From assembly GCA_051883255.1 (NCBI GenBank), contig JBJETJ010000032.1, positions 15,562 through 79,561 on the forward strand: DNA of 64,000 bases. The letters run 5' to 3'. Below the pieces are notes generated by a model, which saw nothing but the letters and a program-made list of their open reading frames with translations, was not told the origin of the DNA and searched no databases. The position numbers and the translations under genes are program-made. Below, piece after piece: positions 1,560 to 19,383 of the stretch. The stretch's first letter is position 1, and each line of letters opens with the position of its first letter. Origin of the DNA: Treponema sp. GTDB taxonomy: Bacteria; Spirochaetota; Spirochaetia; Treponematales; Treponemataceae.

Positions 1560-1561
1560 AT

Positions 1562-2755
1562 ATGAATAATTCATTATTTGATGAAAATGAACTTTTATTT
1601 GATGGTATTAAATCAGGAGTTTCTGAAGAATATGAAGATACAACTGATATAGAACCATTTGATCCTAAGAAAATTTCTATAACAAAAAAGAATATCGCTC
1701 TTGATGTTGTTATTAGACGAATGAAACGCGGAACTATAAGACTTACACCAGATTTTCAAAGAAATGCTGTTTGGTCTGATAAACAAAAAAGTCTTTTAAT
1801 AGAATCTCTCATGTTAAATATTCCTATTCCTATGTTTTATGTTGCAGCAGATGAAGAAGGAAATTGGGATGTGGTTGATGGTCTTCAGCGACTAACATCA
1901 TTGAAAGAATATTTAATAGATAACTCACTTAAAATAAATAATCTTGAGTTCTGGAAAGAATATAAAGACAAAACCATAGATGATTTACCTCCTGTTATCT
2001 ATAACAGAATTTATGAAACAGAATTTACTTTTGTAATAATAGAGCCAAATACTCCAGAAAATGTAAAATATAATATTTTTAAACGCATTAACACAGGCGG
2101 AAAACCTTTAAGTCCTCAGGAAATTCGCAATGCACTTTATAATGGTAAAGGAACAAAACTATTACAAACTCTGGCTCATTCATATACCTTCCGCATTGCT
2201 ACGGATAACAGCATAAATGATTTGCGAATGACAGCTCAGGAATGTGTGTTACGATATTTATCTTATCTCTTAGTGGGTACTGATGGATATTTTGAAAAAG
2301 ATTTCGCAGATTCATTTTTAATTAGGAATCTTAGAATTCTGAATAATTTGGATAACATAAAGGATAAATCTAATTATGTTATGTTCAAAGATGGAAAAAA
2401 TCCAAAGATTCTTGTGAATTCTTACGATGAGCTTATAGATCTGTTTAATAAAGGTCTAAAGAGAAATAAAGACTTTTTTGAAAAAGATGCATTCCGCTTA
2501 ATGTCTATAAAAACAAAGAAAAGAACTCCAATTAACAGGGCTTTACTTGAAACATTAGGAACTTTATTTGCAAGATTGAGCGATGATGACTTTAAAAAAC
2601 TCTTAACGCTAAAAGAAGCCTTCTTGGAAAAATATGAGAAAGTAAGAATAACAAATGAATTCTATAGAGCTGTTTCAAGAGATCCTTGGACGAAAGAAAA
2701 TGTAGACTATAGATTCAAAGTATTTGAGAAAATAATTCAGGAGACAATACAATGA
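1562..2755 (+). CDS. DUF262 (ParB-like) protein, Menshen NsnA-like
   Basis: DUF262 motifs PDFQRNAVW, IESLMLNIPIP, VVDGLQRLT, FKRINTGGKPL; coupled to the next gene by an ATGA overlap. Confidence 0.8.
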   Translation: MNNSLFDENELLFDGIKSGVSEEYEDTTDIEPFDPKKISITKKNIALDVVIRRMKRGTIRLTPDFQRNAVWSDKQKSLLIESLMLNIPIPMFYVAADEEGNWDVVDGLQRLTSLKEYLIDNSLKINNLEFWKEYKDKTIDDLPPVIYNRIYETEFTFVIIEPNTPENVKYNIFKRINTGGKPLSPQEIRNALYNGKGTKLLQTLAHSYTFRIATDNSINDLRMTAQECVLRYLSYLLVGTDGYFEKDFADSFLIRNLRILNNLDNIKDKSNYVMFKDGKNPKILVNSYDELIDLFNKGLKRNKDFFEKDAFRLMSIKTKKRTPINRALLETLGTLFARLSDDDFKKLLTLKEAFLEKYEKVRITNEFYRAVSRDPWTKENVDYRFKVFEKIIQETIQ

Positions 2756-3789
2756 TAACCAAATTAACACTTAAGAACTTCAAATCTTTCTTAGAAAGAA
2801 CGATAGATTTTTCTCCTCTAACTGTCCTTACTGGTATGAATGGCGCTGGAAAAAGTTCTGTTATCCAAGCAATTCGAATGATTCAGAAAAGCTGTGGCGA
2901 TGGACAAGGAAATCCAATTCTTGATGATCATGTTATGCCTAATCAGTTAAAAACAAAACTTACAAAAGATGACTTTTACTTACTTTCATTTATTAAAGAT
3001 GGAAATACATATACAACAGAAGTAAATGAAATAGAATCTGATTCTTATGGTTTTGCAGCTGATGATGGTCACAGAAAAAATGAACTTACTTGTATTTCTT
3101 ATCTTTCTGCAGACAGATATGGTCCAAAAAATCAGCTTCCTGCTGGAAATACGAAAGAAATAAGTGATGTTGGAAATCTGGGTGAATTTGTAATTTCTTT
3201 TCTCGATAAATTCCAATATTCAAAGGTTCCTGAAAAATTACGTCTAAATTCAGATGATGAAAACCTTTTGGACAATACTAATTCATGGCTCAAGGTTATT
3301 TCGAAAGACTCTCTTTTAACTTACGAAAAAAATCAATCACAAAACGTTTACTATCCATTTTATAATGGAATTGTACCTAGTGAAACTGGCTATGGTTTAA
3401 GTTTTACGCTCCCTGTTATTGTTTCACTTTTGTTTACAGATGATAAAAATGTTGAACGCATTTTGTTGATTGAAAATCCAGAAGCACATCTTCATCCAGC
3501 AGCACAAACTGCTTTAGGAAAATTAATTGCTTTGGCCGCAGCAAATGGGAAACAAGTGATTATAGAAACTCATAGTAACCACATAATAGATGGAATTCGT
3601 ATTGCTGCTAAACAAGGAAATATAAAAGCTTCGGATGTAAAATTCCATTTCTTCCGTCGAGATAGTTTTGAAGAAGAATCTACTGTAGAAACACCAGAAT
3701 TGTATCAAGATGGAAAACTTTCTTTCTGGCCAGAAGGCTTTTTTGACCAGGGATTAAAAGACAAAGCTTTGCTTGCGAGGAAAATGTAA
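2752..3789 (+). CDS. ABC-like ATPase with C-terminal DUF3696, Menshen NsnB-like
   Basis: Walker A LTGMNGAGKSS, signature GYGLS, Walker B LLIENPEAHLHP, H-loop IETHS, C-terminal WPEGFFDQ. Confidence 0.85.
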   Translation: MITKLTLKNFKSFLERTIDFSPLTVLTGMNGAGKSSVIQAIRMIQKSCGDGQGNPILDDHVMPNQLKTKLTKDDFYLLSFIKDGNTYTTEVNEIESDSYGFAADDGHRKNELTCISYLSADRYGPKNQLPAGNTKEISDVGNLGEFVISFLDKFQYSKVPEKLRLNSDDENLLDNTNSWLKVISKDSLLTYEKNQSQNVYYPFYNGIVPSETGYGLSFTLPVIVSLLFTDDKNVERILLIENPEAHLHPAAQTALGKLIALAAANGKQVIIETHSNHIIDGIRIAAKQGNIKASDVKFHFFRRDSFEEESTVETPELYQDGKLSFWPEGFFDQGLKDKALLARKM

Positions 3790-4523
3790 TGACTGATTTT
3801 GTTTTTAATTCGGCATCCATACCTCTGACAGATAAAACTTTGGCTCAGAGTACAACTGACGACGTTTTTCTTGCACTAACAAATTATATTGGAGATAATG
3901 CCAAGCCTAAACTCTTTTTTGCTTCTGAACTAGATGATATTTTTCTTGCAGAAAACTTTTCATTTCAGAATTATAGTGATGATTTAATTACTCGAAACAG
4001 AGAACTAGCAGACTTTATATCAGAGTTTGGAGAATATTTTTCGACTTTTAAGACTAGTACAGTTTTTCAACAAAAAACAGTAAAAGTTGGCGATGATACT
4101 AGATTTTCCGATGATGACTCTTTGAAATATGCATGTTTGAACAACAATATTCTTGTAAGTGTTTCTGAAGAGCATATTTGGCAAAGAAACAGAATAAAGT
4201 TTTGTTTAATTGATAATGTCAAAATCGAGTATGAACTTTACAACTTGTTTTCCTCAGATTTTTCATATTTACCTATTGAGTTACCACCATTTTCACTTTC
4301 AGATAAAACTCGATTTAGAAAAACAAATTTTTTTCATGAAAAACAAGCGATTTATCAAGATCTGCAAACAGGATATTACTGGTATAACGACTATTTTCAC
4401 AAAGATAATAAGGCTCACTTTGAAGTCTTTGACAAAACAGGTAATCACATAGCAGAAGCAAGTATGTCTGGAACAATAGATTATTCCAAAGCCGACAGCA
4501 ACAAACATATTCAAGTAAATTAG
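3789..4523 (+). CDS. Putative effector, Menshen NsnC-like, with possible colicin-E3-type RNase C-terminus
   Basis: Third gene of the DUF262/DUF3696 triplet with stop/start overlap. C-terminal WYNDYFH...HFEVFDKTGNHIAE resembles the colicin E3 cytotoxic domain pattern (W-D-x-x-H...E...G-x-H). Assigned by eye. Confidence 0.5.
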   Translation: MTDFVFNSASIPLTDKTLAQSTTDDVFLALTNYIGDNAKPKLFFASELDDIFLAENFSFQNYSDDLITRNRELADFISEFGEYFSTFKTSTVFQQKTVKVGDDTRFSDDDSLKYACLNNNILVSVSEEHIWQRNRIKFCLIDNVKIEYELYNLFSSDFSYLPIELPPFSLSDKTRFRKTNFFHEKQAIYQDLQTGYYWYNDYFHKDNKAHFEVFDKTGNHIAEASMSGTIDYSKADSNKHIQVN

Positions 4524-4541
4524 ATTATAGGAGCCACAACA

Positions 4542-7442
4542 ATGCCAGAATATCAAATAAAATCACCAAAAAAACTTATAGAAGTTGCATTGCCTCTTGA
4601 TGATATAAATGAAGCAAGTGCTCGTGAGAAATCTATTCGACACGGACATCCAAGTACTTTGCACTTGTGGTGGGCACGTCGTCCTCTTGCAAGTGCGAGA
4701 GCTGTAATTTTTGCACAGATGGTAAATGACCCGCTATGGCGTTTTGAAATGGAAGGTAAAACACCTAGTCCGCAGGAAAAATCTGCTGCAACAAAAAAGC
4801 GTGAGAAGCTTTTTAAGATAATACGTGAACTTGTAAAATGGGAAAATACGACTAATGAAGATGTCCTAAATGAAGCTCGAGAAGAAATAAGAGCCAGTTG
4901 GAAAGAAACATGTGAATTAAACAAAGACCATCCAGAAGCAAAAACGCTTTTTAATCCTGATGTATTACCGGCTTTTCATGACCCGTTTGCTGGTGGCGGT
5001 GCTTTACCGCTTGAGGCTCAAAGACTTGGGCTTGAAAGTTATGCAAGCGATTTGAATCCTGTGCCTGTTATGATTAACAAGGCTATGATAGAAATACCAC
5101 CTCTATTTGCTAATCAAAGACCTGTTCATCCAATAGCAGAAGATACTGTCTGGTATGAAGAAAAAAGAGATTACAAAGGTGCACAAGGTTTAGCAGAAGA
5201 TGTTGCCTATTATGGAAAATGGATGCGTGATGAAGCAGAAAAGAAAATAGGACATCTTTATCCAAAAGTAAAAATAACACAAAAAATGGTTGATGAGAGA
5301 CCAGATTTAAGACAATACTTGAATAAAGAATTAACAGTAATTGCATATATCTGGGCTAGAACTGTCAAAAGTCCAAATCCTGCATTTAAGGAAGTAGATG
5401 TTCCTCTTTCTAGTTCATTTGTATTGAGTAAGAAAAAAGATAAAGAAGCTTGGATAGAGCCTGTCGTAAATGGCAAAAAGTACACATTTAAAGTTCATTC
5501 AGGAATGTATCCTAAAAAAGCAGAAAATGGAACAAAAGCAGGAGGTCGCGGAGCAGATTTTACATGTATTGTTTCGGGTACACCTATATCTGGAAATTAT
5601 ATAAAATCAGAAGGTTGTGCAGGAAAAATGGGAGCTGTATTATTAGCTGCCGTCTGTGAGGGTACGAATGGACGAGTGTATATTTCACCCGACAATGTTC
5701 CTTTACCAAGTTCAGCTGAATACAAAATTACATGGAAGCCTGAAGGAAAAATACCTGCAAGACTTACAGGCGGAACATGTGTCCCATATGGTTTAGATGA
5801 ATGGTATAAAATTTTTACAAATAGACAACTTACTACTCTCGATACATTCTCAGATTTAATTCCAATCTTGATTTCAAAAATAAAGAGTGATGCAGTTAAA
5901 CATGGACTTTTAGATGATAATAAAGGAATTGAACAATTAGGAAAAGGAGCAACAGCTTATGCACAAGCTTTGGCAGTTTATTTGAGTTTTGCTATTGATA
6001 AATTATCAGACTCTAATTCAGCTTTAGCAAGCTGGACTCCATTGCGTGATACAATGAGAAATACTTTTGGAAGACAAGCATTGCCAATGGTTTGGGATTT
6101 TGCAGAAGTAAATCCTTTTTCTGAATCAACAGGAAACTTTTCAAATTGTCTAGATTGGATTGAAAAGTGTTTTGCTTCATTTTATACCTCTTCATTAGGC
6201 TCTGTAAAACAAGCTCCGGCACAAACCCAAACAATTTCAACTAATAAAGTAATTTCGACAGATCCTCCGTATTATGATAATATAGAATATAGTTCTCTTT
6301 CTGATTTTTTCTATGTTTGGATGAGGCATAATTTAAGAAATATTTATCCTGCATTATTTTCAACAATTGCAACTCCAAAAAAAGAAGAACTCATAGCAGT
6401 TTCGTATCGTCATGATTCTAAAGAATCTGCAGAATTGTTTTTCTTAAATGGTATGACGGAAGTAATGGCAAATCTAGCAAATATTAGTAATTCAGCTTTT
6501 CCTGTAACTATATATTATGCATTCAAACAATCAGAAACTTCTGACAGTGGAGCAACATCAAGTACGGGTTGGGAAACATTTTTACAAGCCGTAATAAATG
6601 CAGGTTTTTCAGTAAACGGAACTTGGCCAATGAGAACAGAACGTGAAGGAAGAATGATTGGAGTTGGAACAAATGCTCTCGCATCCTCAATCGTCCTCGT
6701 ATGCCGTCGTCGTTCAGAAAATGCAATAGAAGTCAGTCGTCGTTACTTCCTTCGTGAACTCAAAAAAGTAATGGACGAAGCAAAAGAAGTAATGACACAA
6801 GGAGATGAAACAACATCTCCTGTTGCACCAGTAGACTTGAGTCAGGCAATTATAGGTCCAGGTATGGCCGTATTCAGCAAATATAAAGCCGTCCTCGAAG
6901 CAGATGGTTCTGCAATGAATGTAAAAGAAGCCTTAAAACTCATTAACCGTTATATGGAAGAAGACGACTTTGATGCTAATACGCTGTTCTGCAAAGATTG
7001 GTATGCACAATATGGCTGGAATGAAGGCTTATATGGCGAAGCGGATGTTCTTGCTCGAGCTAAAAATGCAAGCATTCAGATACTTCAGGCAAATGGAACA
7101 ATAATAAGTGGACAAGGAAAAGTTCAGCTTACATCTTGGAAAGACTACAAGAATACAAATGAAATACTTGTAAACTCAACACTTAGTACCTGGAATCTGC
7201 TTCATCAGTTTATTCACGAGCTTAATTTGCATGGCACTGAAGGTGCAGCTGAAGTTTACGTCCGTTATAATAACAGAACAGCAGATGTAAGAAGTCTTGC
7301 TTATACAATGTACACACTCTGCGAGCGCAGCGACCGTGCTGAAGATGCCCGAGTTTATAATGAACTTATTATTGCCTGGGATGATATTGAAGCGGCAAGT
7401 TCTAGCGTAGTTGTTAATAATCAGCCGACATTGTTTGATTAA
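4542..7442 (+). CDS. DUF1156 adenine-specific DNA methyltransferase
   Basis: N-terminal KKLIEVALPL...LHLWWARRPLA hallmark; SAM-binding DPFAGGG; catalytic TDPPYYDNI. Confidence 0.92.
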   Translation: MPEYQIKSPKKLIEVALPLDDINEASAREKSIRHGHPSTLHLWWARRPLASARAVIFAQMVNDPLWRFEMEGKTPSPQEKSAATKKREKLFKIIRELVKWENTTNEDVLNEAREEIRASWKETCELNKDHPEAKTLFNPDVLPAFHDPFAGGGALPLEAQRLGLESYASDLNPVPVMINKAMIEIPPLFANQRPVHPIAEDTVWYEEKRDYKGAQGLAEDVAYYGKWMRDEAEKKIGHLYPKVKITQKMVDERPDLRQYLNKELTVIAYIWARTVKSPNPAFKEVDVPLSSSFVLSKKKDKEAWIEPVVNGKKYTFKVHSGMYPKKAENGTKAGGRGADFTCIVSGTPISGNYIKSEGCAGKMGAVLLAAVCEGTNGRVYISPDNVPLPSSAEYKITWKPEGKIPARLTGGTCVPYGLDEWYKIFTNRQLTTLDTFSDLIPILISKIKSDAVKHGLLDDNKGIEQLGKGATAYAQALAVYLSFAIDKLSDSNSALASWTPLRDTMRNTFGRQALPMVWDFAEVNPFSESTGNFSNCLDWIEKCFASFYTSSLGSVKQAPAQTQTISTNKVISTDPPYYDNIEYSSLSDFFYVWMRHNLRNIYPALFSTIATPKKEELIAVSYRHDSKESAELFFLNGMTEVMANLANISNSAFPVTIYYAFKQSETSDSGATSSTGWETFLQAVINAGFSVNGTWPMRTEREGRMIGVGTNALASSIVLVCRRRSENAIEVSRRYFLRELKKVMDEAKEVMTQGDETTSPVAPVDLSQAIIGPGMAVFSKYKAVLEADGSAMNVKEALKLINRYMEEDDFDANTLFCKDWYAQYGWNEGLYGEADVLARAKNASIQILQANGTIISGQGKVQLTSWKDYKNTNEILVNSTLSTWNLLHQFIHELNLHGTEGAAEVYVRYNNRTADVRSLAYTMYTLCERSDRAEDARVYNELIIAWDDIEAASSSVVVNNQPTLFD

Positions 7443-7466
7443 ACTGTAAATAAGGAGAAAAAAAAT

Positions 7467-10106
7467 ATGTTACCTAGCTATATTGAAGAAGAAAGGAAAA
7501 ATTACAGAATGACTCCAAATGCTTTTCAAAAAAGCCACAAAATAATTCATTTTACAATTACAATAATGAAATACATTACGATTTATACGTATTTCAAACT
7601 TGTTGATGAAGATTCTCCTAAATTGAAAAATATTAAAAAACTTATTTGTGATATTTTTCTTAGACCAACTGAAGGACAATGGATTAATTTATTTGAACAG
7701 GTAATTCTTGCAGATAATGAAGTAAAGAAAAATATAAAAACGACTTTATCCAAAGATAATGATACTTTACTTAATAAGCTCTGTTATACTTTTATTTCTA
7801 AGGATATAAGACCAAATCAAAATAATATACAAGATTTTTTCCAAAGAATTATAAAAATAAAAAATGGATTTGTATCCCATGGAATACTAACTGAAGATAA
7901 TTCAGATTTCTTTGTAGAAAATATTGAACCTATATTAGATGAAGTATTAAGTAAAACAGAATGCTTATTAAATCCTGAATTATTTATGGTTAATTCATCT
8001 TCCAATGAAATCATACCATACAATGATATTGAAATTGATGAAAGTAAATATAATTTCGATGATGTTGAAGATGATGGCCTTTATCTATCTATTAAACATA
8101 GACTTTTATATGCAAGTCCTTTTTTAATTTGTCGTGATGGTGATATTCTCATATACGATAGTTTTGATAATAGAACGCACAAAGTTAATTATATTCGTGG
8201 TGCACAAAAAACTTATATTCATACTGATGTTGATACTTTACCTGAACTTTTTAGAATTGATTACAATTATTTAAATGCTAAACCTCTAGATATTCAAGTA
8301 AAATGTACAAATGGAGTTTCTCATAACTTACCAAATGCTGAATATGAAAAATTTGTTGGCCGTAGAAAAGAAATTGAAGAATTATCAACAGCATTAAAAC
8401 ATAGACGCCATTTTATTACAGCACTTGATGGGATTGGTGGTGTAGGAAAAACAGCTATTGCTGTACATTGTTGTGAAGAATTATTGGAACATAATCAGGA
8501 AGATCCTTTTGAATACATCGTATGGCTTTCTGCAAAAAATACCCGTTTACAAAATGGTAAAATTATTCAACTTGAGCAATCATTTGAGCATTTAGGGCAA
8601 TTGCTTGATACAATCTTAATTGTACTTGGATTCAATGAATATATTTCAATGGATAATTTGAGAGAAAAAATTAAGACTGTAAATGAATTACTAGAACAAA
8701 CCAAAATACTTTTAGTTTTGGATAACTTGGAAACAATTAAAACTGATAAACTGGAAGCAATATGGGACTTTATTAATAATATTCCTGATCCATCAAAAGT
8801 ATTGCTCACTAGCCGTGAGTTTCCACAGAGCGTTCCTCAGACAATACGAATTGAGAACCTATCTGAAGAAGATTCTTATCAGTTAATTGAACAATTTTCA
8901 TCAGAAATTAATATTAGCCCTTCTTATTTGCAAGGAATAAAAAAGGATGTTTACAAACTTTCTTCAGGATTACCAATTGTTATAAAAAGTATTCTAGGTC
9001 AAATTAAACTTGAGAAAAATATTGGCATTATTAAGAGAGAAATCGAAAATAATACAGAGAATATTTCAAAATTCTGTTTTGAACAGCAACTCCGTATGTT
9101 GGATAAAGATCAAAAAACTGTAATTATTGCACTTTGTTTATCAACAGAAATATTGAATCATGACGCACTTCAATTAGTTGTTGGTGATTTGATTACTAAT
9201 AATTTGGTTGATGTAGTTCAAAATCTTAGAAACTTCTCAATTATTAAAATTAGTAATACTTTGGAGCAAACTGAATATACAATCCTTTCTATTATTAAAA
9301 ACTATGCTTTAAATTTTTTTAAAGAGAGTGAACTTATTAATGAAGTTCAAAAGAGATTAACCGAATACTACGAACTTAAAGAAGTTGAAAACTATGCATT
9401 GTTACCCATTGAAGCTGAGCACATTTCTTGTGAGGCATTGATACCAAGAAAGATTGTCGATAAAGCTATGAACTATGCAAATTCTGGAGAACTTGAACAA
9501 GCTGATTTAATGTTTAAAAAAGCAACAAAAGAGTATTCTTTAGAACCATATACTTGGTATATGTATGCACAGTTTAATGCACAATACGAAGGTAAATATA
9601 AAGATGCAATCAATGCTCTTAAGAAAGCAAGTTCTCTTGAAAGTAATTATCTTTATTTAAAGAAAATGGGTGATTATTATTTAAAACTTGCAAATCAACT
9701 TGAATCGATAAAATGTTATGAAGAAGCTTATAACATTGCAAAAGAAGAAAGAAATAAATCCGAAATGCTATATCTTCTTTCTACAGCACAATTTAATTAT
9801 GTAAAAGTTTTACGTAAGCGTATGAAAAATCAGAGTTTTGATAATGAAGGAATTAAACAAGAACGTAATTCTTTGTATCAGCAGATTATTAATAATCTTG
9901 AAAAGTATATTTCAATACAACCACATATCTATGATGGTAAAAAGGAGAAAATCTATCGTATACTTGCAGAATCATATTTTGGTTTGAAAACATACGATGA
10001 TGCTTTAAGAAATATAGAAATGGCTATTGAAATCTCAAATAATAATCCTTATCAAATTAGATATAGAGATTTTATTAAAGAAACACTTATAAATGGTAAT
10101 TTCTAG
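7467..10106 (+). CDS. STAND/NB-ARC NTPase with C-terminal TPRs and an N-terminal HEPN-like domain (NLR-like)
   Basis: FVGR..E pre-P-loop motif, Walker A GIGGVGKT (8430-8453), Walker B LLVLDNLE, sensor LLTSRE, GLPIVI motif, helical TPR-like C-terminus; KNGFVSHG at 7860-7883. Confidence 0.8.
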   Translation: MLPSYIEEERKNYRMTPNAFQKSHKIIHFTITIMKYITIYTYFKLVDEDSPKLKNIKKLICDIFLRPTEGQWINLFEQVILADNEVKKNIKTTLSKDNDTLLNKLCYTFISKDIRPNQNNIQDFFQRIIKIKNGFVSHGILTEDNSDFFVENIEPILDEVLSKTECLLNPELFMVNSSSNEIIPYNDIEIDESKYNFDDVEDDGLYLSIKHRLLYASPFLICRDGDILIYDSFDNRTHKVNYIRGAQKTYIHTDVDTLPELFRIDYNYLNAKPLDIQVKCTNGVSHNLPNAEYEKFVGRRKEIEELSTALKHRRHFITALDGIGGVGKTAIAVHCCEELLEHNQEDPFEYIVWLSAKNTRLQNGKIIQLEQSFEHLGQLLDTILIVLGFNEYISMDNLREKIKTVNELLEQTKILLVLDNLETIKTDKLEAIWDFINNIPDPSKVLLTSREFPQSVPQTIRIENLSEEDSYQLIEQFSSEINISPSYLQGIKKDVYKLSSGLPIVIKSILGQIKLEKNIGIIKREIENNTENISKFCFEQQLRMLDKDQKTVIIALCLSTEILNHDALQLVVGDLITNNLVDVVQNLRNFSIIKISNTLEQTEYTILSIIKNYALNFFKESELINEVQKRLTEYYELKEVENYALLPIEAEHISCEALIPRKIVDKAMNYANSGELEQADLMFKKATKEYSLEPYTWYMYAQFNAQYEGKYKDAINALKKASSLESNYLYLKKMGDYYLKLANQLESIKCYEEAYNIAKEERNKSEMLYLLSTAQFNYVKVLRKRMKNQSFDNEGIKQERNSLYQQIINNLEKYISIQPHIYDGKKEKIYRILAESYFGLKTYDDALRNIEMAIEISNNNPYQIRYRDFIKETLINGNF

Positions 10107-10122
10107 ATAAGGTAAGGTTCAT

Positions 10123-11604
10123 ATGGAATCTATTGAGGCTAAAATCAAAGAACTTAATGCTTACCCGACTGAACGAGAATGGTTTGAGTTCAAGCAAAAC
10201 TGGTTTGACAAAGACCAGTTGGGACAATATATTTCAGCACTTTCAAATAGTGCTGCATTTGAAGGAAGAAGAGAGGCATATTTTGTTTGGGGAATACACA
10301 ACAAAAGTCATGATATCGTTGGAACAAATTTTGATCCAAATTGTGATATTGATAATGAGCCGCTAAAACATTACCTTTCACGGCAACTGGAACCTAAGAT
10401 TAATTTTTCTTTTGAAGAAGAAGTAATTGAAGGAAAGAAAGTTGTTCTTCTTACTATACCTGCTGCAAAGACTGTCCCTGTTGCCTTTGCAAATGAACGC
10501 TTTATAAGAATTGGAAGCAGTAAGGAGAACCTTAGAAAATATCCAGAAAAGGAATCATATTTGTTTGATGTTTTAAGGCATGGACTTCCGACTATAGAGA
10601 ACACACCATCACAGTATCAGGATTTAACCTTTGAAAAATTACTTATTTATTATGGTGCAAAAGGAATCAGACTGAACGAGGAAACATTTAAAAAGAATCT
10701 AGGTTTTTACACCTACGACGGAAAGTATAATATTCTTGCTCAACTGCTTTCTGATAACTCACATTTTGTGCAAAGAGTTGCTATTTTTGGTGGAAAAACA
10801 AAAACAGCGCCTTTGATTTCTGTCCGTGAATTTGGTTTACAATGTATTCTTTATACGCTTGATGAAGTGCTTCGTTATGGGGATGTGTTAAATATTATTC
10901 AGGCAGATGAGCGAAACAGGATTGTTGAACGAAAAGAAGTCGCGCTTTTTGAAAATGATGCATTCCGTGAAGCTGTGATAAACGCTTTTGTACATAACCG
11001 GTGGGTTGATGGAAATGAACCTATGATAAGTGTATTTTCTGACCGAATAGAAATTTTATCACATGGTCCCATTCCACCAGAGCAAACAATTGAAGGCTTT
11101 TTTGCCGGGGTCTCAATTCCTGTAAACAAAAAACTGTCAGAAATATTTTTACAATTGCATATAAGTGAAAAAACTGGTCGTGGTGTTCCAAAGATTGTAG
11201 AAAAATATAACAAGGGAGCATATTCTTTTACAGATAATTATATAGTCGTTACAATTCCTTTTAAATGGATTAATTCTGTGGGCTGGAATGTCGAACCAGT
11301 TGGCGGTGTTGTTTCAGGTGGAAATTATACACCAAAAATTAGGGAAACCCCAGATAAGTTCGATAAAAATACAGAAAGTTCGATGAAAAGTTCGATGAAA
11401 AGTTCGATGAAAATCATCGAACTTATGAGGTTAAATTCGATGATAACGGCTGTAGAACTTTCGTCAATATTAAAAATTTCTAAACGTGCAGTTGATAAGC
11501 AGATCCAAAATTTACGAGAATCAGGTAAACTTCGTCGTATCGGTCCAGATAAGGGCGGATATTGGGAAATAATAGATACAGATGAAATTTCGGAGGAAAA
11601 ATAA
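10123..11604 (+). CDS. Schlafen/AlbA_2 domain + HATPase-like + C-terminal HTH protein (RecG-like 'ATP-binding protein')
   Basis: EREWFEFKQN...ISALSNS (AlbA_2), FREAVINAFVH, EKTGRGVPKI, C-terminal wHTH ending LRRIGPDKGGYWEI. Confidence 0.85.
   Translation: MESIEAKIKELNAYPTEREWFEFKQNWFDKDQLGQYISALSNSAAFEGRREAYFVWGIHNKSHDIVGTNFDPNCDIDNEPLKHYLSRQLEPKINFSFEEEVIEGKKVVLLTIPAAKTVPVAFANERFIRIGSSKENLRKYPEKESYLFDVLRHGLPTIENTPSQYQDLTFEKLLIYYGAKGIRLNEETFKKNLGFYTYDGKYNILAQLLSDNSHFVQRVAIFGGKTKTAPLISVREFGLQCILYTLDEVLRYGDVLNIIQADERNRIVERKEVALFENDAFREAVINAFVHNRWVDGNEPMISVFSDRIEILSHGPIPPEQTIEGFFAGVSIPVNKKLSEIFLQLHISEKTGRGVPKIVEKYNKGAYSFTDNYIVVTIPFKWINSVGWNVEPVGGVVSGGNYTPKIRETPDKFDKNTESSMKSSMKSSMKIIELMRLNSMITAVELSSILKISKRAVDKQIQNLRESGKLRRIGPDKGGYWEIIDTDEISEEK
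11375..11410 (+). repeat. 12-bp in-frame tandem repeat (AAAGTTCGATGA)x3 encoding SSMK
   Basis: Three exact copies read directly from the sequence, in the linker before the HTH. Confidence 0.95.
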
Positions 11605-13500
11605 ATGAGCGCAAACAATAGTATTTGCTTAAAATCAGTCTATGACCTGCTTGATATGAATTTTTTTATTCCTGATTATCAACGAGGGTACCGCTGGTCT
11701 CAAAATCAGGTAACCGACTTATTAAATGATATTTATTCCTTCGCTTCCAAAAAAGGAAAATCAGATGAAGAGTTTTATTGTCTCCAGCCTATTGTTGTAA
11801 AAAAATGCAATCAAGAAACCATGGATAAATATAATTTAGTTGATGGATTTGGAGACAATACTTGGTACGAAGTTGTTGACGGGCAGCAACGATTAACTAC
11901 TATAAAAATCCTTTTTTTATATCTTCTGAAGTATCATTTAAAAACTGATTCATTAAAGCAAGATTATAGAAAAGAACTGTTTAAAATAAAGTATGCAACT
12001 AGACCAAATTCAGAAGAATTTTTAAATTCACTAATTAAATCTGACCATCAGAAAAATTCTGAATATATAGATTATGATTATATAGATAATGCATATTCAT
12101 ATATTGATAACTGGATAAATACAAATACAAAAGATTTACCAGGAAAAGTACGAGCTACACTTTTTGATCCTTTAGTAAACACTAAAGATAATCAAACAGA
12201 AAGAGGAACAATTCAAGTAATCTGGTACGAACTTGAAGAATCAGAAAACTCAATTGATACTTTTACTCGTCTTAATATTGGAAAAATTCCTCTTACAAAT
12301 GCTGAACTTATAAAAGCCTTATTTCTTCAAAAAAGTAATTTTACAGAAGCAGAAGTGGAACCACGACAGAGTGAAATTGCTTTGGAATGGGATAGAATTG
12401 AATACGCATTGCAAAATGATGAATTCTGGTATTTCTTGAATGAAGAAATAAATGATACACCAGCAAGAATTGAGTTCATTTTTGATGTAATGTATAAAAT
12501 TGCTTGTAAAAAAGCCCCTGGACTTCTTGATAAATTTGGAACCGATAACGATAGAACTTTCAGATATTTTGCTTACAGAATATTGGAAGAAAAAGGTAAA
12601 GTTACAGAAATTTGGGCAAAAGAAGTAAAAGCCTTTTTTAATACATTTGAAGAATGGTTTACTGATTCAGTTTGGTATCACTATATAGGGTTCTTAATTT
12701 ATTGTGGTGTTGATATTGTTACTATTTATGATTTTTATAAAGATAAACCAAAAGATGAATTTTTGGCAAAGATTAAGGAAAAGATAAGAGAAAATGTACC
12801 TGTTAAATATAAGATTTTGAAAACACCTGATAACACAAAAGAATATGATGTAAAACTTAGTTATGATAACAACAAAACTCTTTTAAGAAAAGTTTTATTA
12901 CTATTAAATATTGAATACATCGTAAAACAGGAAGAAAAGACTTATATAAGATTTCCTTTTGACCGTTTCAAAAAAGAATCTTGGGATATAGAACACATTG
13001 ACTCTTTTACAGAAAACGATATGAATGATAGAGCATAACAAAAAATGTGGCTAACAGATTCTGTTTCTGTATTAGAAGATGACGAAAAATGTAAGGATTT
13101 AGTAAAACAAATCAATGAGTTCCTTGAATCTTTTGATGAAGCAAAAAATGCAAAAGATAAATTCTTAGAATTCAGGACTTCTATATTACAAGCTGTAGGA
13201 GAACAAGTTTCTGAAAATTCTGAAGATGAAAAAAAATCTATTGGAAATCTAACTTTACTTGATGCAGGAACAAATAGAAGTTACGGAAATGCTTTGTTCC
13301 CTGTAAAACGAAAGACAATAATAGAAAAAGATTCTCACGGACAGTTTATTCCAATATGTACTAAGTATGTATTTTTAAAGTACTTTAACAAAGGTGGAGC
13401 TTCAATTTCCAGATGGAATAACACGGACATAAAATCATACAGAAACTTTGTTGTAGAGACTCTCGCTAACTTCTTTATTTTAGAAGGAGGAAATAACTAA
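11605..13500 (+). pseudogene. GmrSD-like DUF262-DUF1524(HNH) gene interrupted by a single in-frame TAA at 13036-13038
   Basis: PDYQRGYRW, VVDGQQRLTT, FTRLNIGKIPLT (DUF262). The HNH motif WDIEHID lies before the stop and SIGNLTLL...NRSYGN after it, in the same frame (AGA GCA TAA CAA AAA ATG TGG). Confidence 0.85.
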
Positions 13501-15848
13501 TGAATAAAAAATATAGCTTTTATGATTTGCTTACACAAACAATACTTATAGAAGAAAACAACACAGAAAAGGAAATTACAATAAACAAACTTGAAATTCC
13601 AAGGATTCAACGAGATTATGCCCAAGGAAGAAGAATTAATGATAAACTCCTATCTGGTACAAGTTTTTTAACAGCTATTTTTGATCATTTAGAAAACGAT
13701 ACAGAAATGGAAATGGACTTTATTTACGGAGCTGTACATCTTGGAAAATTTGAACCATTGGATGGACAGCAAAGACTTACAACTTTATTTTTGCTCCATT
13801 GGTATTTCGCAACAAGAGAATTTGAAAAGGAAGATTTTGAAATCTTTGCCAAAAAGCTTAAGAAATTTACTTATGAAACCCGAGCTTCTTCACGTATGTT
13901 CTGTGAAAATCTTTGTGAACAACAATTGAATATTCGAACTCAACTACCTGTTGATGTTATTACTAATGCTCACTGGTTTTATAAATCTTATCATAAAGAT
14001 CCAACAATTCAGGCAATGTTGAATATGATTGAGCAAATTGATGAATTGTATAAAAAGCTTGATGATAGTATTTCATATTTTCCACGATTAAATAAATTGC
14101 ATTTTTATATTTTACCCCTTAATAATTTTAATCTTACAGATGAGCTTTATGTGAAAATGAATGCTCGTGGTAAACCACTTACACATTTTGAAAATTTCAA
14201 AGCTGACCTAACAAAATGGATGAAAGCTGGAGATAACCCTTACTGTGCAGATTATTATGCAAAAGTTAAATACGGTGAAAGCAAAACAGAAATTGAACAT
14301 TTTTCAAAAATAAGTTTAGAGCTGGATAACAAATGGACAGATACAATTTGGAATCTTGTAAAAGATTCTGATAAAAAAGTTGATAAACGTTTTATGATGC
14401 TGTTCAAAAGATATTGCCTTGGGAAATATCTTGCTTATACAGACATAGAAGGAAAATCTTTGACATCCGACCCTGTATATAAATATTTCACTGGCAAAGA
14501 AGACACTTATTCTGTCTTTAATGAATTTAAATCTATCTTTGATAATTCTGAAGAGAATGTACTTTTTTCTTTTGAGCGTTTTTTCAACCAATACTCTGAG
14601 AATGTTGAAGTAATAACAAAGGATATACAACCAAACTGGCAATATTGGCAGGAAAAGAAAGGTGGAGAAAAGATGGAATATTCAATCTTTTCTCCAAAAT
14701 TCACTTCAAAAGATAGAATTGTATTTTTTGCAATGGCACGTTATCTGGAATTATTTGATTATAATCAAAAACAATTCAAAGAGTGGATGAGAATAGTTTG
14801 GAATATTACACTTAATACAGATATTAATGATGCGGCAGCTTTTGGTCGTGCAATTAAATTAATAAATGAATTATCTGTAAAAGGTGATAAAATTTATTCT
14901 TTCTTAGCAGATGAGAATTCTGTTATTGTTCTTCATTCATCTGAAAAAGCCATAAGAGAAGAAAGAATAAAAGCTTCATATATTTGCAAAGATAATACTT
15001 GGGAAAATATTTTCATTAATGCAGAAAAACATCCTTTCTTTGAAGGCTCAATTACTTTCCTGCTTACAGAAAATATGACACAAGAAGAGTTTAATCATAG
15101 ATTTGATATGGCTTCATTTATCTTTGATGATAACGGAATTTCATCAAATTACAGAAGGAATGGTCACATCCTTTTACGAGCTCTAATTAGTAATTATGAT
15201 TCTTTTGAAAAGTTTAAAAATGGAAATGGAAAAGGTAGAAGTTTTTACACAGATAAAGATGAAAAAGAGCATTATTTGAAAAAAATGCTTGTTAATGACC
15301 AGTATGTAATCGATGCTCTTATTCGATATTGCAATCAGCCTTCTCAAGATAAAATTCTTGAAATGTTAAAAGCTGATATACAACGACCTTCTTTGATTGC
15401 AAAAAAAGCAAAGGAAACTGGTTCTACTGAACTTGAAATAAGAAAAAAAGCCTTTGCACATGAAGCCTTATATAAGACAGAAACACTCCAGAATTGGATG
15501 CAAGAAGAATCAAGGCAGGCAACAAGATTCCAACATTCATATAACAGCTTAAATGTTTCAAGACCTATGGCACATTATGATTGGGTAATGTTAGATCCAA
15601 TACGCAGTGATGTTTGTAAATTTTTAATTGAAAATGGATATGAAACAACACAACGGTTAGATGATTCTGATTACTTCTGGGGATTCGATATTGAACTGGT
15701 CAATTCTAAAAAGAAATTGACAATTGAAGTAAAATGGGAAGGCACGTTTGAAGTTTATAAAGATAATAAAATTAATAATCTTTTAGACGGATTAAATTAC
15801 CTTAATAACGAAAAAATTATTGATGAATTAAAAGCTAAATTAGCATAA
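13500..15848 (+). CDS. Second DUF262 (GmrSD-like) protein
   Basis: IPRIQRDYAQGR, PLDGQQRLTTLFLLHWY, YVKMNARGKPLTHFENFKA; TAATG overlap with the upstream gene. Confidence 0.85.
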   Translation: MNKKYSFYDLLTQTILIEENNTEKEITINKLEIPRIQRDYAQGRRINDKLLSGTSFLTAIFDHLENDTEMEMDFIYGAVHLGKFEPLDGQQRLTTLFLLHWYFATREFEKEDFEIFAKKLKKFTYETRASSRMFCENLCEQQLNIRTQLPVDVITNAHWFYKSYHKDPTIQAMLNMIEQIDELYKKLDDSISYFPRLNKLHFYILPLNNFNLTDELYVKMNARGKPLTHFENFKADLTKWMKAGDNPYCADYYAKVKYGESKTEIEHFSKISLELDNKWTDTIWNLVKDSDKKVDKRFMMLFKRYCLGKYLAYTDIEGKSLTSDPVYKYFTGKEDTYSVFNEFKSIFDNSEENVLFSFERFFNQYSENVEVITKDIQPNWQYWQEKKGGEKMEYSIFSPKFTSKDRIVFFAMARYLELFDYNQKQFKEWMRIVWNITLNTDINDAAAFGRAIKLINELSVKGDKIYSFLADENSVIVLHSSEKAIREERIKASYICKDNTWENIFINAEKHPFFEGSITFLLTENMTQEEFNHRFDMASFIFDDNGISSNYRRNGHILLRALISNYDSFEKFKNGNGKGRSFYTDKDEKEHYLKKMLVNDQYVIDALIRYCNQPSQDKILEMLKADIQRPSLIAKKAKETGSTELEIRKKAFAHEALYKTETLQNWMQEESRQATRFQHSYNSLNVSRPMAHYDWVMLDPIRSDVCKFLIENGYETTQRLDDSDYFWGFDIELVNSKKKLTIEVKWEGTFEVYKDNKINNLLDGLNYLNNEKIIDELKAKLA

Positions 15849-15860
15849 AGAGGAAATATT

Positions 15861-18704
15861 ATGGCACTTAAAGCATGGCGAGAAATTGTAATTCCACACG
15901 ATGATGTTTTGAATGGTACTTCAACTCAGTCAGAATTTGCAGCTGATTTGAATTCTGTTGCTTCTGGAAAAGCAAGCGTAGAATATCAGGATGCAGAAAC
16001 CTTTTATAGCAGAACTTACATTACAGCAGGTATGTCTCTTTTGCTTAAGAATGTAATTATGCGTCTTAATGAAAAAGGTGGTGAGCCTGTTATCCAATTA
16101 AAAACTTCTTTTGGTGGTGGTAAAACACATTCTATGATTGCTGTATATCACTTGGCTAAAAGAATTTGTCCTCTAAATAATTTACAAGGAATTCCTGCGT
16201 TAATTGATACTTTGGAATTCAGTGATATACCACAGGCAAATGTTGCGGTAATTGACGGAAATAATTTAAGTCCAGGGCAACCTTGGATACGTGGAAAATA
16301 CCAGATTCAAACTTTGTGGGGTGAACTTGCCTGGCAGCTTGGTGGAGAAGAAGGATATAAACTTTTAGAGGAATCTGATAAGAACAAAACTTCTCCTGGA
16401 AAAGATTTGCTTGCATCTATTTTCACAAAATATGGGCCATGTGTTATTTTGGTGGATGAGTTATTGGCTTTTATTCGCCAGCTTATTGGTAATGATAATC
16501 TTCCAGCAGGAACTTTTAATAGTAATATTTCCTTTGTACAGGCATTAACTGAAGCTTGTAAGGTTGTTCCGAATTGTATTTTACTTGCTTCATTGCCGGA
16601 GTCTGAAGCAGAAGTTGGAAACGATGAAGCAAAAGAAGCATTAGTCGCACTTGAAAAATATTTCGGTCGTGTACAAGCCATTTGGAAACCTGTTGGCACT
16701 GAAGAATCTTTCGAAATTGTAAGAAGACGTTTATTTAAGGAAATAACTGACGAAAAAGCAAAAAAAGAAGTATGTAGAGCTTTCTTTGATATGTATCGTT
16801 CTGAAAATAAAATGCTACCTTCAGAAACTCAGGAATCGGCATATCTTGAAAGATTAGAACGTGCATATCCAATACATCCACAGTTGTTTGACTGTTTATA
16901 TGAAGAATGGGCAACTCTTGAAAAATTCCAGAAAACAAGAGGAACGCTTAAATTGCTTTCTACAGTCATTGCTTCTTTGTGGAAACAGAATAATACAGAT
17001 TTATTTATTCTCCCTTCAAGCATTCCTGTTTCAGACGGAAAAGTTGCTACAGAATTATGTGCTGTACTTAATGGTAATGGTTGGGAACAGGTTATTACAA
17101 AAGATATTGATGGCGATAATTCAGAAAGTTCAAAAATAGATATGGGAGATCCAAGAATTGGAAAATATCTTTGCGCTAAAAAAGTATCTCGTTCTATCTT
17201 TATGAAAACATCTCCAATTGCAAATGAAATTAGAACAAATTCTCATTCTGCACAAACAGCTAAGGGAGTTGCTTCTGATTATATTTTGCTTTGCTGTTTA
17301 CAGCCAGAACAGAATTCAGCTTTGTATATTGATGCCATCAAAAAGATAGCAGATAAATTACACTATTTGAATATTAGCGGAAGTGACGAAGGGGCTGATA
17401 AACGCTATTACCGTTTTGCAACCACTGCAAATATGCGTAAAGAACTGGAAGATAGATGTAATCGAATTAAAGATAACGACCCTAAACTTTTAGAATTATT
17501 AAAAGATATTTTACAAAAACTTTCTGATCAGAAAACATTGTTTGATTACATTCATCGTTTCCCAGACAGCTCTGAAATTCCTGATGATGAATCTTTGAGA
17601 TTAATTTACTTGAGTCCATCACAATTTTATAGTTCAACGGAAAACTTTGAATATGCTGAGAAAGCTGTAACTAATTTTGTTAAGAATTGTGGTTCAAATT
17701 TACGAATACATCAAAATAGACTTATATTTGTTGCACCTGAAAGTAAAACTTTAAACGCTGTTGAACAAGCAGCTAAAAAATACATAGCTTGGGAATCTAT
17801 CATAGATGATGCAAAAAGTGGTTGCATAAACCTTGATATGTATAATATGAAAAATGTTCAAAATGATTTTGATGCAGTGAAAAAAGCATTATCAAGTCAG
17901 GTACAGAATTGCTGGAAACATTTATTTGTACCATTTCAGTTACCAGGTGAAACGGATTTTACTATTGAGCATCTTTCTATCAACAATAATGATCTATTCA
18001 TTAAATCAATTGAAACAGCTTGTAAAGAAAATGAATATGTTATTCAAAAATGGGGACCAATACATTTAAATAACATATTAAAAACTGTTTATTGGAATAA
18101 CAGTAATGAACCTGTGGCTATTTCAAAATTCTGGGAAGATTCAACAAGATACATTTATTTTTCACGTTTACAAAAAAAACATGTTCTTTATGCAACTGTA
18201 ACACAAGCTTCTAGCGCTTCTGATTATTTTGGTCTTTCTGATGGTATTGGAAATAATGGAAAATTGACGGGATTGTCTGTTGGTAAACAAGTTGATTTTA
18301 TTACAGATGAAACATTGATTGTTCCATTAGATGTTGCTAAAGCAGTAATTGATGCTGAAAAAGCAGCACATCAAACTCCAACAGCTACAACTACAGGTGA
18401 TACTGTAAAACCTCCAACAATTGGTTCTGGAGTACAAACAGGAGGAACAGCACCAAGCCCAATATCAACTCCTAAAAAGAGTCATTTTTATTTTAATCAG
18501 AAAATCCAATTCGGTGAATTGGCAATTAAGGCTAACAAAATTTACGATGAAATTATTTCAGTTTTGAATCAATCTCCTGATGTAAATTTAGATGTTCATA
18601 TTTCTATTGATGCGCATTTTTCTGACGGAGCTGACGAAAAAATTGTACGAGATGTTTCTGAGAATTTAAGAACTCTCAATATGAATCCTGGAGAATGGAG
18701 TTAA
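15861..18704 (+). CDS. DUF499 AAA+ ATPase
   Basis: LKAWREIVIPHDDV...EFAADL N-terminus, Walker A FGGGKTHS, Walker B ILVDEL, YPIHP and FQKTRGTLKL motifs. Confidence 0.9.
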   Translation: MALKAWREIVIPHDDVLNGTSTQSEFAADLNSVASGKASVEYQDAETFYSRTYITAGMSLLLKNVIMRLNEKGGEPVIQLKTSFGGGKTHSMIAVYHLAKRICPLNNLQGIPALIDTLEFSDIPQANVAVIDGNNLSPGQPWIRGKYQIQTLWGELAWQLGGEEGYKLLEESDKNKTSPGKDLLASIFTKYGPCVILVDELLAFIRQLIGNDNLPAGTFNSNISFVQALTEACKVVPNCILLASLPESEAEVGNDEAKEALVALEKYFGRVQAIWKPVGTEESFEIVRRRLFKEITDEKAKKEVCRAFFDMYRSENKMLPSETQESAYLERLERAYPIHPQLFDCLYEEWATLEKFQKTRGTLKLLSTVIASLWKQNNTDLFILPSSIPVSDGKVATELCAVLNGNGWEQVITKDIDGDNSESSKIDMGDPRIGKYLCAKKVSRSIFMKTSPIANEIRTNSHSAQTAKGVASDYILLCCLQPEQNSALYIDAIKKIADKLHYLNISGSDEGADKRYYRFATTANMRKELEDRCNRIKDNDPKLLELLKDILQKLSDQKTLFDYIHRFPDSSEIPDDESLRLIYLSPSQFYSSTENFEYAEKAVTNFVKNCGSNLRIHQNRLIFVAPESKTLNAVEQAAKKYIAWESIIDDAKSGCINLDMYNMKNVQNDFDAVKKALSSQVQNCWKHLFVPFQLPGETDFTIEHLSINNNDLFIKSIETACKENEYVIQKWGPIHLNNILKTVYWNNSNEPVAISKFWEDSTRYIYFSRLQKKHVLYATVTQASSASDYFGLSDGIGNNGKLTGLSVGKQVDFITDETLIVPLDVAKAVIDAEKAAHQTPTATTTGDTVKPPTIGSGVQTGGTAPSPISTPKKSHFYFNQKIQFGELAIKANKIYDEIISVLNQSPDVNLDVHISIDAHFSDGADEKIVRDVSENLRTLNMNPGEWS

Positions 18705-18726: not shown

Positions 18727-19002
18727 GTGGAGACAGACATTATGACATTTGAACAAGTTGAATTGGAATTAAAGAAGATTTTTGATAAAGCTACTGCAGC
18801 TGGCAAAACTGAAATTATTCTTGTTTCTAAAGAATTCTTTGACCAGATGGAAATAAAACCGGAATACCGTGATTGCATTCCGATGTGTTGCCGCGTTATG
18901 AAAAATAATATAAAAGAAGGTATTGATGAAGTTCTTTATCATACTCCTTCATGGCAGAGTCATACTTTGAAAATTAAGTATAAGTTACCAAGGAAAACTT
19001 GA
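18727..19002 (+). CDS. Small hypothetical protein with IPMCC.VM motif
   Basis: GTG start 22 bp after the DUF499 stop, same strand; 91 aa, ends KIKYKLPRK. Confidence 0.6.
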   Translation: METDIMTFEQVELELKKIFDKATAAGKTEIILVSKEFFDQMEIKPEYRDCIPMCCRVMKNNIKEGIDEVLYHTPSWQSHTLKIKYKLPRKT

Positions 19003-19134
19003 TAATACCGGTAATTCTTGGTTTCTTTATTTTTTTTGATTTCACAATCCAGTTTTGACGGATATAATTATCACAAAAAAGAAACAAAGCAGGCTGAACA
19101 TGATAAAAAGAAAAATGAAATCTTCGATATAATT

Positions 19135-19380: not shown

Positions 19381-19383
19381 TTT

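Follow-up and report, generated by a model that had tools for sequence, protein, structure and literature searches.

A lysine in place of the HEPN arginine: a candidate HEPN-like effector at the front of a cassette-like STAND NTPase from Treponema

Introduction

What an unannotated domain does at the front of a bacterial STAND protein, and whether such a protein serves the operon in which it is found, are the questions raised by one gene in the 64,000 nucleotide (nt) stretch of Treponema sp. DNA analyzed here (GenBank assembly GCA_051883255.1, contig JBJETJ010000032.1, positions 15,562 to 79,561 of the forward strand; hereafter the window, in whose coordinates positions are given). The gene lies within an Hma defense operon and encodes an 879 amino acid (aa) NTPase, P0001. 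Single-protein STAND sensors correspond in bacteria to the NLRs of animals and plants, and the trigger is known, or the effector tested, for few of the many STAND families. P0001 is of interest as a compact, self-contained cassette with an effector that neither current domain libraries nor Foldseek can recognize. The unannotated N-terminal region most likely represents a divergent RNA-cutting HEPN domain whose catalytic motif has been rewired, and we propose, with moderate confidence, that the gene encodes a self-contained, horizontally mobile, single-protein antiviral STAND sensor (Avs-like, bacterial NLR-type) that would use a HEPN-like RNase as its effector.

7467-10106, + strand: whole gene, encoding the 879 aa HEPN-like/NB-ARC/TPR-like STAND NTPase P0001 (uninterrupted frame, Pfam, homologue alignment)

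A first-pass annotation of the same DNA had described a three-part protein, and this layout was recovered with Pfam as an N-terminal domain of ~290 aa, an NB-ARC NTPase (E 1.5e-16) and weak TPR-like repeats.

The N-terminal motifs and their conservation

HEPN domains are defined by an R-x4-6-H motif in which a polar residue (N, D or H) follows the arginine, often with an upstream E-x3-[KR] (PMC3710099). Three short stretches of the N-terminal domain of P0001 bear on this definition:

7860-7883, + strand: K132-N-G-F-V-S-H138-G139, a HEPN-type catalytic motif with K for R (K-x5-H)
7557-7571, + strand: I31-x3-K35 in the first long helix, at the site of the R-type E-x3-K; the E is lost and K35 is invariant
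7662-7682, + strand: invariant R66-P-T-E69-G-x-W72 loop (alignment)

When the R-x4-6-H pattern is sought in P0001, K132-N-x4-H138 is found; the spacing, the N and the H fit, and the R is absent clade-wide. The first-pass annotation had read a HEPN-like motif with K for R at 7860-7883, which is exactly K132-G139, and the K-x5-H spacing does fall inside the R-x4-6-H range. The string it quoted, RIIKIKNGFVSHG, corresponds to residues 127-139 (7845-7883).

Nine full-length sequences were aligned, with N-domain identities of 34-89%. H24, K25, K35 and R66-P-T-E-G70-x-W72 are invariant among them, as are K132, N133, S137, H138, G139, E143, P218 and C222-R-D-G225; the motif K, N, S, H and G, together with E69 and E143, are kept down to about 28-35% identity. 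As K132, N133, S137, H138 and G139 are invariant across nine full-length homologues, the K132-G139 motif is not a chance string, and such strict conservation is the mark of a selected site rather than of decay. In the loop, relatives outside the lysine-bearing clade (K clade) have P-[ST]-L-G-x-W, so that the acidic residue is unique to the K clade. The first-pass annotation had left two options for the lysine variant, an active RNase of altered type or an inactive scaffold; the conserved K, N, S, H and G and the gained E would favor the former, an active but remodeled site.

Relatives and the lysine/arginine split

Relatives of the N-terminal domain are rare. When 5.8 billion proteins were searched by word index with residues 1-295, eight homologues of ~860-890 aa with the same architecture were returned, in each of which the N-terminal 290 aa are conserved along with the remaining protein; scanning 1.84 billion cluster representatives exhaustively with a hidden Markov model of the N-domain yielded only 29 proteins at E <= 1e-3. 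They are named "hypothetical" or "NB-ARC domain-containing" proteins in their sources and originate from metagenome-assembled genomes of Treponema, Spirochaetales and Helicobacteraceae. Among 201 species genomes of the host's taxonomic family, only the present one has the gene. No relatives were found in phage records, and no literature mention was found of the homologue accessions or of Kx4H-type motif names.

Checking the homologues for the arginine, as the first-pass annotation had suggested, separates them cleanly. All 18 members of the K clade (17 database proteins and one Spirochaetota genome match) hold [ILV]-K-N-x3-S-H together with P-[TS]-[ED]-G-x-W, with the motif K, N, S, H and G unvaried down to ~28% identity, whereas all relatives outside it, both the sister NB-ARC/TPR clade and the more distant ones, hold R-N-x3-[GSA]-H together with P-[ST]-L-G-x-W. 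The sister clade comprises seven R-type proteins with the NB-ARC/TPR layout of P0001 (P0022, P0038-P0043), and the R-type set also includes an 877 aa Ralstonia megaplasmid protein and a Runella plasmid protein. In the tree, the K-type sequences form one group (support 98/93) that is sister to the R-type NB-ARC/TPR clade, and the two together split from the remaining R-type lineages at 100/99. One R-to-K change would be enough to account for this distribution, with K as the derived state. The other two positions follow the same division: E-x3-K of the first long helix is present in 11 of 13 R-type relatives, while a hydrophobic residue takes the E position in all ten aligned K-type sequences, with the K retained, and the L of P-[ST]-L-G-x-W is replaced by E (once by D) in the K clade only. 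Because all three changes fall on one branch, they count as one event in the history of the family and should not be read as statistical covariation.

The K clade may be viewed as a natural experiment on the HEPN motif, one in which the N, H and G are kept, the R is swapped for K and the acidic residue is moved. With a sister clade of the same architecture that retains the canonical R, the pair would bear on whether lysine can replace arginine in a HEPN-type site.

The R-type module is wired to a wide range of partners: NB-ARC and NACHT STANDs, Zn ribbons, TIR-like domains, a receiver domain and a kinase, as well as a methyltransferase, a prenyltransferase-like toroid and a tandem duplicate of itself. 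Among P0027, P0028, P0032, P0036, L044 and L046, the module is seen behind a receiver domain, as a tandem pair ahead of a P-loop NTPase, ahead of a TIR-like domain, ahead of a Ser/Thr kinase, and behind a prenyltransferase-like toroid or a methyltransferase-like region. In the Ralstonia solanacearum megaplasmid NZ_CP051295.1 (L080), the R-type HEPN-like/NB-ARC/TPR protein of 877 aa is encoded by an intact open reading frame (ORF) at 2614-5247 that has no feature in the PLSDB gene table, and the same ORF match occurs in at least seven R. solanacearum megaplasmid records.

Is the N-terminal module a HEPN domain?

Modeling of the N-terminal domain with AlphaFold2 (AF2) gave a confident structure (pLDDT 87, pTM 0.86; pLDDT 91 for the helical part alone) of eight helices followed by a beta-rich subdomain, which lies C-terminal to the helical module throughout the superfamily of relatives.

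7467-7961, + strand: N-terminal all-helical subdomain, the HEPN-like module, residues 1-165, eight helices (AF2 models, hhalign)
7974-8336, + strand: beta-rich subdomain and linker, residues 170-290, with invariant P218 and C222-R-D-G225 (alignment, AF2)

For profile comparison, alignments of HEPN_Swt1, HEPN_RiboL-PSP and Abi_2 were built from genome matches to those families. The R-type helical alignment (17 sequences) matched HEPN_Swt1 in hhalign with 75% probability (P 2.5e-5, score 35.3) and with the catalytic motifs in register; the top score among sixty column-shuffled templates was 13.4 (P at least 0.16), and the reversed template gave P 0.22. A mixed alignment under a looser alignment setting gave 54% (P 1.3e-4). 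Among accepted HEPN families represented by similarly small alignments, Swt1 against Abi_2 reached 82% (P 1.1e-5) and RiboL-PSP against Swt1 89% (P 2.2e-6), and RiboL-PSP against Abi_2 only 0.6% (P 0.096). The link between the module and Swt1 is thus of the same order as the links among accepted HEPN families; the 2013 HEPN survey relied on HHpred probabilities of 75-98% (PMC3710099). In the R-type relatives, E-x3-K and then R-N-x3-H occur in that order, followed by a helix, and two of 11 weak single-sequence Pfam matches are to HEPN families (HEPN_RiboL-PSP, 0.019; HEPN_AbiU2, 0.061), none of which passes its threshold. The fusion partners of the R-type modules also mirror those tabulated for Swt1-like HEPNs (PMC3710099), a repertoire that would fit an effector or toxin-like domain. 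We hold with fair confidence that the module belongs to the HEPN superfamily.

Several results weigh against this assignment and against the reading of the gene built on it. Of the three HEPN signature residues, P0001 itself lacks the one R and the E of helix 1, and the R is required for activity in the HEPN RNases that have been studied (PMC3710099). Under default hhalign, alignments dominated by the K clade reach only 8.5-9% against HEPN_Swt1 (P 0.0035-0.0039); the profile similarity depends on parameters and is local. Against RiboL-PSP and Abi_2, the motif alone aligns (hhalign, P 0.005-0.06). Residues 1-290 match no Pfam, NCBIfam or PADLOC model, and Foldseek found no neighbors, the best E values being 0.27 and 0.78 in the PDB and 0.12 in BFVD, with HEPN proteins absent from the top 50 in every PDB and BFVD search. 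Beyond the N-terminal domain, the TPR models that align to residues 667-860 each fall under their gathering scores (TPR_2 25.9 against 27, TPR_14 22 against 23.5), and one homologue is found among housekeeping genes.

The Foldseek searches used the two-subdomain and helical-only models against the PDB and the full N-domain against BFVD; their top matches (myoglobins, designed bundles and Cas1, TM ~0.1-0.25) were taken as noise. Foldseek is weak on small all-alpha domains. When the Swt1-like profile was searched against the PDB by sequence, the closest chain was HepS at E 0.06. Since the Swt1-like branch is barely present in the PDB by sequence and the method is weak on small helical domains, the negative Foldseek result is not decisive. 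The motif-only alignments to RiboL-PSP and Abi_2 were discarded as evidence in themselves; these two accepted HEPN families behave alike when compared with each other. Searching each family member against Pfam, NCBIfam and PADLOC at E <= 10 gave no usable N-domain match, nor did sequence searches of the PDB with the N-domain as a single protein, a 9-sequence profile or a 22-sequence profile. The HEPN identity put forward in the first-pass annotation holds up in part: it is backed by the R-type profile match to HEPN_Swt1, and it gains nothing from the models, which are confident and lack any Foldseek neighbor, HEPN or otherwise. A hydrophobic stretch at residues 24-46 was considered as a membrane helix and rejected, as it forms a buried helix in the model (pLDDT ~95) and holds the conserved K25 and K35.

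The NTPase and the C-terminal repeats

The remainder of the protein consists of a well-recognized NTPase and a less distinct repeat region.

8370-9143, + strand: NB-ARC (AP-ATPase-type STAND) NTPase, residues 302-559 (Pfam PF00931)
8430-8453, + strand: Walker A, G322-I-G-G-V-G-K328-T329 (sequence, alignment)
8706-8726, + strand: Walker B, L414-L-V-L-D419-N420, with an invariant D-N instead of D-D (sequence, alignment)
9444-10061, + strand: C-terminal TPR-like helical repeats, residues ~660-865, the presumed ligand sensor (sub-threshold Pfam TPR_2, TPR_14, TPR_12)

The PF00931 match (60.9 bits against a cut-off of 23.5) spans profile positions 4-245 of 248, while the NACHT profile matches P0001 only at E 0.01, under its cut-off. 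None of the NTPase motifs is disrupted, and all or most of them do not vary among the homologues; by eye, they also include an RNBS-B-like T448-S-R450, GLP(I) at 501-504 and an MHD-like N564-H-D566, which correspond to the sensor-I R, GLPL-like and MHD-like motifs of NB-ARC proteins. The D419-N420 of Walker B may point to NTP binding with slow hydrolysis. NCBIfam matches the NTPase only, with weak similarity to FxSxx_TPR and AfsR-type proteins. No DNA-binding domain was detected in the Pfam scan of P0001, and the homologues bear precomputed TPR family matches.

Genomic context and mobility

The Hma operon spans window positions 3-18704 and holds two blocks of unrelated defense cargo, all co-oriented and with gaps of at most ~25 nt. 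HmaA is 5'-truncated by the window edge (PADLOC 483 bits); the other two components frame the cargo block in which the STAND gene is found.

4542-7442, + strand: HmaB (DUF1156 adenine methylase), directly upstream of the STAND gene (PADLOC 1513 bits)
7453-7457, + strand: Shine-Dalgarno sequence AGGAG, 9 nt before the ATG, within the 7445-10088 stretch shared with a BREX-embedded homologue
15861-18704, + strand: HmaC (DUF499 ATPase) (PADLOC 1097 bits)

One cargo block, NsnABC (Menshen, 1562-4523), lies between HmaA and HmaB, and the other, of four genes (7467-15848), between HmaB and HmaC. In the latter, the STAND gene is separated by 24 nt from the preceding stop and by 16 nt from the next gene; the block also holds a gene of Schlafen/AlbA_2-HATPase_c_4-HTH type, a split GmrSD and a DUF262 protein. 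Of 61 genomes of the genus, only one has HmaB; as it is absent from the other 60, the island as a whole is accessory.

The nearest homologue, at 88% nt identity (locus L039), is embedded in a BREX operon, where DarTG and a Schlafen-like gene flank it. Other homologues are found beside a type III restriction-modification (R-M) system and GmrSD, near BrxC, and near a GmrSD_N gene, and defense islands are present in five of the six contexts examined, across which no conserved partner gene was found. Between the window and the BREX copy, nucleotide similarity is confined to 7445-10088, that is, the ribosome-binding site and the gene. From these comparisons the STAND gene appears to be a one-gene, horizontally mobile cassette without a fixed partner, and would be cargo dropped into the Hma operon, not a guard thereof. 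The proposal of the first-pass annotation that the protein guards the neighboring restriction-like complex finds no support in this result, since the cassette occurs in BREX, type III R-M, Hma and non-defense contexts and its homology does not reach beyond the gene. BREX and Hma seem to take the same gene-sized cassettes downstream of methylase genes, and defense operons (Hma here, BREX elsewhere) may thus act as landing pads for gene-sized immune cassettes.

A Schlafen/AlbA_2-HATPase_c_4-HTH gene adjoins or neighbors the STAND gene in three of the six contexts (window 10123-11604; L039 12665-14251; L002 2800-4428). The copies of the window and the BREX locus are 24.5% identical, and the L002 copy is 41% identical over the AlbA_2 part. 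A two-gene cassette of the STAND and Schlafen/AlbA_2 genes was considered and rejected, given the 24.5% identity of the neighbors and the end of DNA homology at the STAND gene; the Schlafen-like genes would instead represent a recurrent neighborhood of independently acquired genes. The BREX operon of L039 (1-19531) also bears an AAA_15 ATPase pair and, between PglX and PglZ, a DarT-DarG (Macro) toxin-antitoxin.

Other features of the island were also observed. The split GmrSD consists of a 477 aa GmrSD_N (DUF262) ORF (11605-13038, TAA at 13036-13038) and a 151 aa GmrSD_C ORF (13045-13500), whose ATG comes 6 nt later; homologous loci hold a single ~687 aa GmrSD, and the split form reflects either the interruption of one gene by a nonsense codon or a natural version in two parts. 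The protein encoded at 13500-15848 (782 aa) matches GmrSD_N/DUF262 only (E 9.5e-20), with a long unannotated C-terminal region and no PADLOC match. Downstream of HmaC, at 18727-21952 and ~22000, three ORFs (91, 343 and 519 aa) with a GC content of 0.24-0.28 have no PADLOC match, and the 519 aa ORF has hydrophobic segments at its C-terminus. The island boundary is probably at ~22 kb, as the GC content rises there to 0.43-0.47 and oppositely oriented housekeeping-like genes start. No tRNA was found in window 1-30000. The HmaC of the window (947 aa) was considered as a source of the HEPN domain and rejected, as it aligns over the full length of the 941-position HmaC model and lacks an R-N-x-H head. 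In other Spirochaetota (L022, L023, L024, L032), frames of ~1085-1131 aa bear an N-terminal HEPN_Swt1 (up to 134 bits) and, judged by length alone, are probably of the "Ava_2192" HEPN + DUF499 ATPase type of PMC3710099.

Proposed mechanism

A mechanism can be suggested by analogy to Avs proteins, in which a single copy of a phage protein is bound by a TPR-like sensor, releasing autoinhibition and leading to oligomers that scaffold the effector (PMC13581612). In P0001, the TPR-like C-terminal repeats would recognize a ligand of phage origin, most probably a conserved phage protein, and binding would lift the autoinhibition of the NB-ARC switch, allowing the protein to oligomerize in the NTP-bound state. 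The oligomer may then pair the HEPN-like N-terminal modules into composite active sites that would cut RNA (tRNA, rRNA or mRNA) in a metal-independent manner, so that the infected cell is arrested or killed in a form of abortive infection. The tandem duplicate of the module in P0028 fits the need of HEPN sites for two domains. The N-terminal module itself is pictured as a divergent offshoot of the Abi2/Swt1-like HEPN assemblage with a small beta-domain behind it, and the signature of the K clade as remodeled, not lost: the helix-1 E would have given way to a hydrophobic residue, an E would have appeared in the P-T-E-G-x-W loop and the motif R would have become K, around an unchanged N133, H138 and G139.

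Alternative explanations

Three other accounts of the N-terminal module can be given. It may be an effector enzyme that is not a HEPN at all, with a new two-part fold and a different active site built from the K/R-N...H-G, P-T-x-G-x-W and C-R-D-G residues (such as that of another nuclease or of a nucleotide-modifying enzyme), its likeness to the HEPN motif being convergent. The absence of a structural neighbor in the PDB or BFVD at pLDDT 87-91 favors this, as do the eight helices in place of a minimal four-helix bundle, the obligatory conserved beta-subdomain that lies outside every HEPN family model and the restriction of the hhalign similarity to about 40-60 columns round the motif. It is unlikely, however, in view of the correct order of both HEPN signatures in the relatives, the 75% match to HEPN_Swt1 with its clean controls, a motif that falls on the catalytic motif in all three HEPN family comparisons and a fusion repertoire as catalogued for Swt1-like HEPNs; the missing structural neighbors lose weight with the known weakness of Foldseek on small helical domains and with HepS as the only PDB chain to approach the Swt1-like profile. 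There is also the possibility, to which we give a minor but real share of credence, that the N-terminal unit, a helical module with E-x3-K, P-[ST]-L-G-x-W and R-N-x3-G-H-G in this order plus the beta-subdomain, is an unrecognized effector superfamily without a solved or annotated structural relative. The K clade would then be a natural active-site rewiring (E relocated, R to K) that alters chemistry or substrate and goes beyond a conservative replacement; its site would then be a new catalytic solution within, or convergent on, the HEPN RNases. Lastly, the domain may be catalytically dead and serve as a scaffold or as an RNA-binding or oligomerization module, either non-enzymatic or signaling to another protein. 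Both the canonical R and the helix-1 E are gone clade-wide, tested HEPN RNases need the R, and inactive HEPNs such as Swt1 and MtlR exist (PMC3710099). This is nevertheless doubtful, as no variation is seen in K, N, S, H, G, E69 or E143 down to ~28-35% identity, the pattern of a selected site, no conserved partner gene is present to act as effector, and the protein holds only an NTPase and a repeat region besides the N-terminal module.

At the level of the whole protein, tight operon packing with 24 nt and 16 nt gaps might suggest that P0001 guards or cooperates with the Hma complex, or with the Schlafen/AlbA_2-HATPase_c_4-HTH gene that follows it here and in the BREX locus and that has a relative nearby in L002. 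We consider this very improbable: homologues are present in BREX, type III R-M, other and non-defense settings without Hma, nucleotide homology ends at the gene borders and the adjacent Schlafen-like genes, being only 24.5% identical, were not co-inherited with the STAND gene. Equally slight are the prospects of a non-immune role, in which P0001 would be an NB-ARC/TPR signaling or regulatory ATPase of the AfsR/MalT kind with an N-terminal output of another sort. The weak resemblance that the NTPase bears in NCBIfam to FxSxx_TPR and AfsR-type proteins and the one homologue among housekeeping genes agree with such a role; the lack of a DNA-binding domain, the defense islands in five of six contexts, the extremely patchy spread (1 of 201 genomes of the family) and the cassette behavior of the gene do not. 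An antiviral STAND sensor with a HEPN-like effector is the reading that we retain.

Comparison with known systems

The closest precedent is the set of Swt1-like HEPN + STAND-ATPase + TPR (+S1/cold-shock) proteins catalogued in silico in 2013 by Anantharaman, Makarova, Burroughs, Koonin and Aravind (examples are Npun_F6454, MED222_16016 and Desac_1927), listed together with Swt1-like HEPN + Zn-ribbon fusions (PMC3710099). As N-terminal HEPN + STAND + TPR proteins were already described there, the novelty claimed in the first-pass annotation was overstated. By catalogue description, P0001 is alike in its probable N-terminal HEPN-type module, central STAND NTPase and TPR-like C-terminal repeats; links to defense islands and R-M operons, Zn-ribbon fusions among the relatives and HEPN_Swt1 as the best profile match are shared as well. 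It differs in being unrecognized by Pfam HEPN_Swt1 or any other HEPN model, in the lack of an S1/cold-shock tail, in its obligatory beta-subdomain, and in having K for R, the loss of the E of E-x3-K and the gain of E in the P-T-E-G-x-W loop.

With the Avs/AVAST proteins (Avs1-5; Avs7, Avs8, Avs10-21 and others in PMC13581612), P0001 shares the single-gene arrangement of putative effector, STAND and presumed TPR-like sensor, the occurrence in defense islands and horizontal mobility, and presumably the sequence of ligand binding, oligomerization and effector assembly. It differs in its NB-ARC/AP-ATPase-type NTPase and unannotated effector domain. No family model of PADLOC-DB v2, those of Avs and bNACHT included, matches P0001 at E <= 1 or P0007 at E <= 0.01, in keeping with the first-pass description of an unclassified STAND receptor, and P0022 gives only a weak PDC-S27 match; as a positive control, the Avs1b model matches the relative P0031 at 3.8e-13. 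The 2026 survey by Lee et al. distinguishes 589 STAND clades (PMC13581612).

The stand-alone HEPN RNases (AbiD/AbiF Abi_2, RiboL-PSP-HEPN, ApeA, HepS, Tha) resemble the module in the R/K-N-x3-H motif followed by a helix and in their defense context, and differ from it in that only motif-level alignment is obtained to Abi_2 and RiboL-PSP and in that the domain of P0001 is STAND-controlled and not free-standing. As for Hma (HmaA SNF2/DUF3883 helicase, HmaB DUF1156 methylase, HmaC DUF499 ATPase), the STAND gene sits inside its operon yet is no component of it, as it has no PADLOC Hma match and has homologues in other operons. Set against all of these systems, what appears to be new in P0001 is a module that escapes all current HEPN models and Foldseek, an obligatory beta-subdomain and the remodeling of a HEPN-type signature at three positions.

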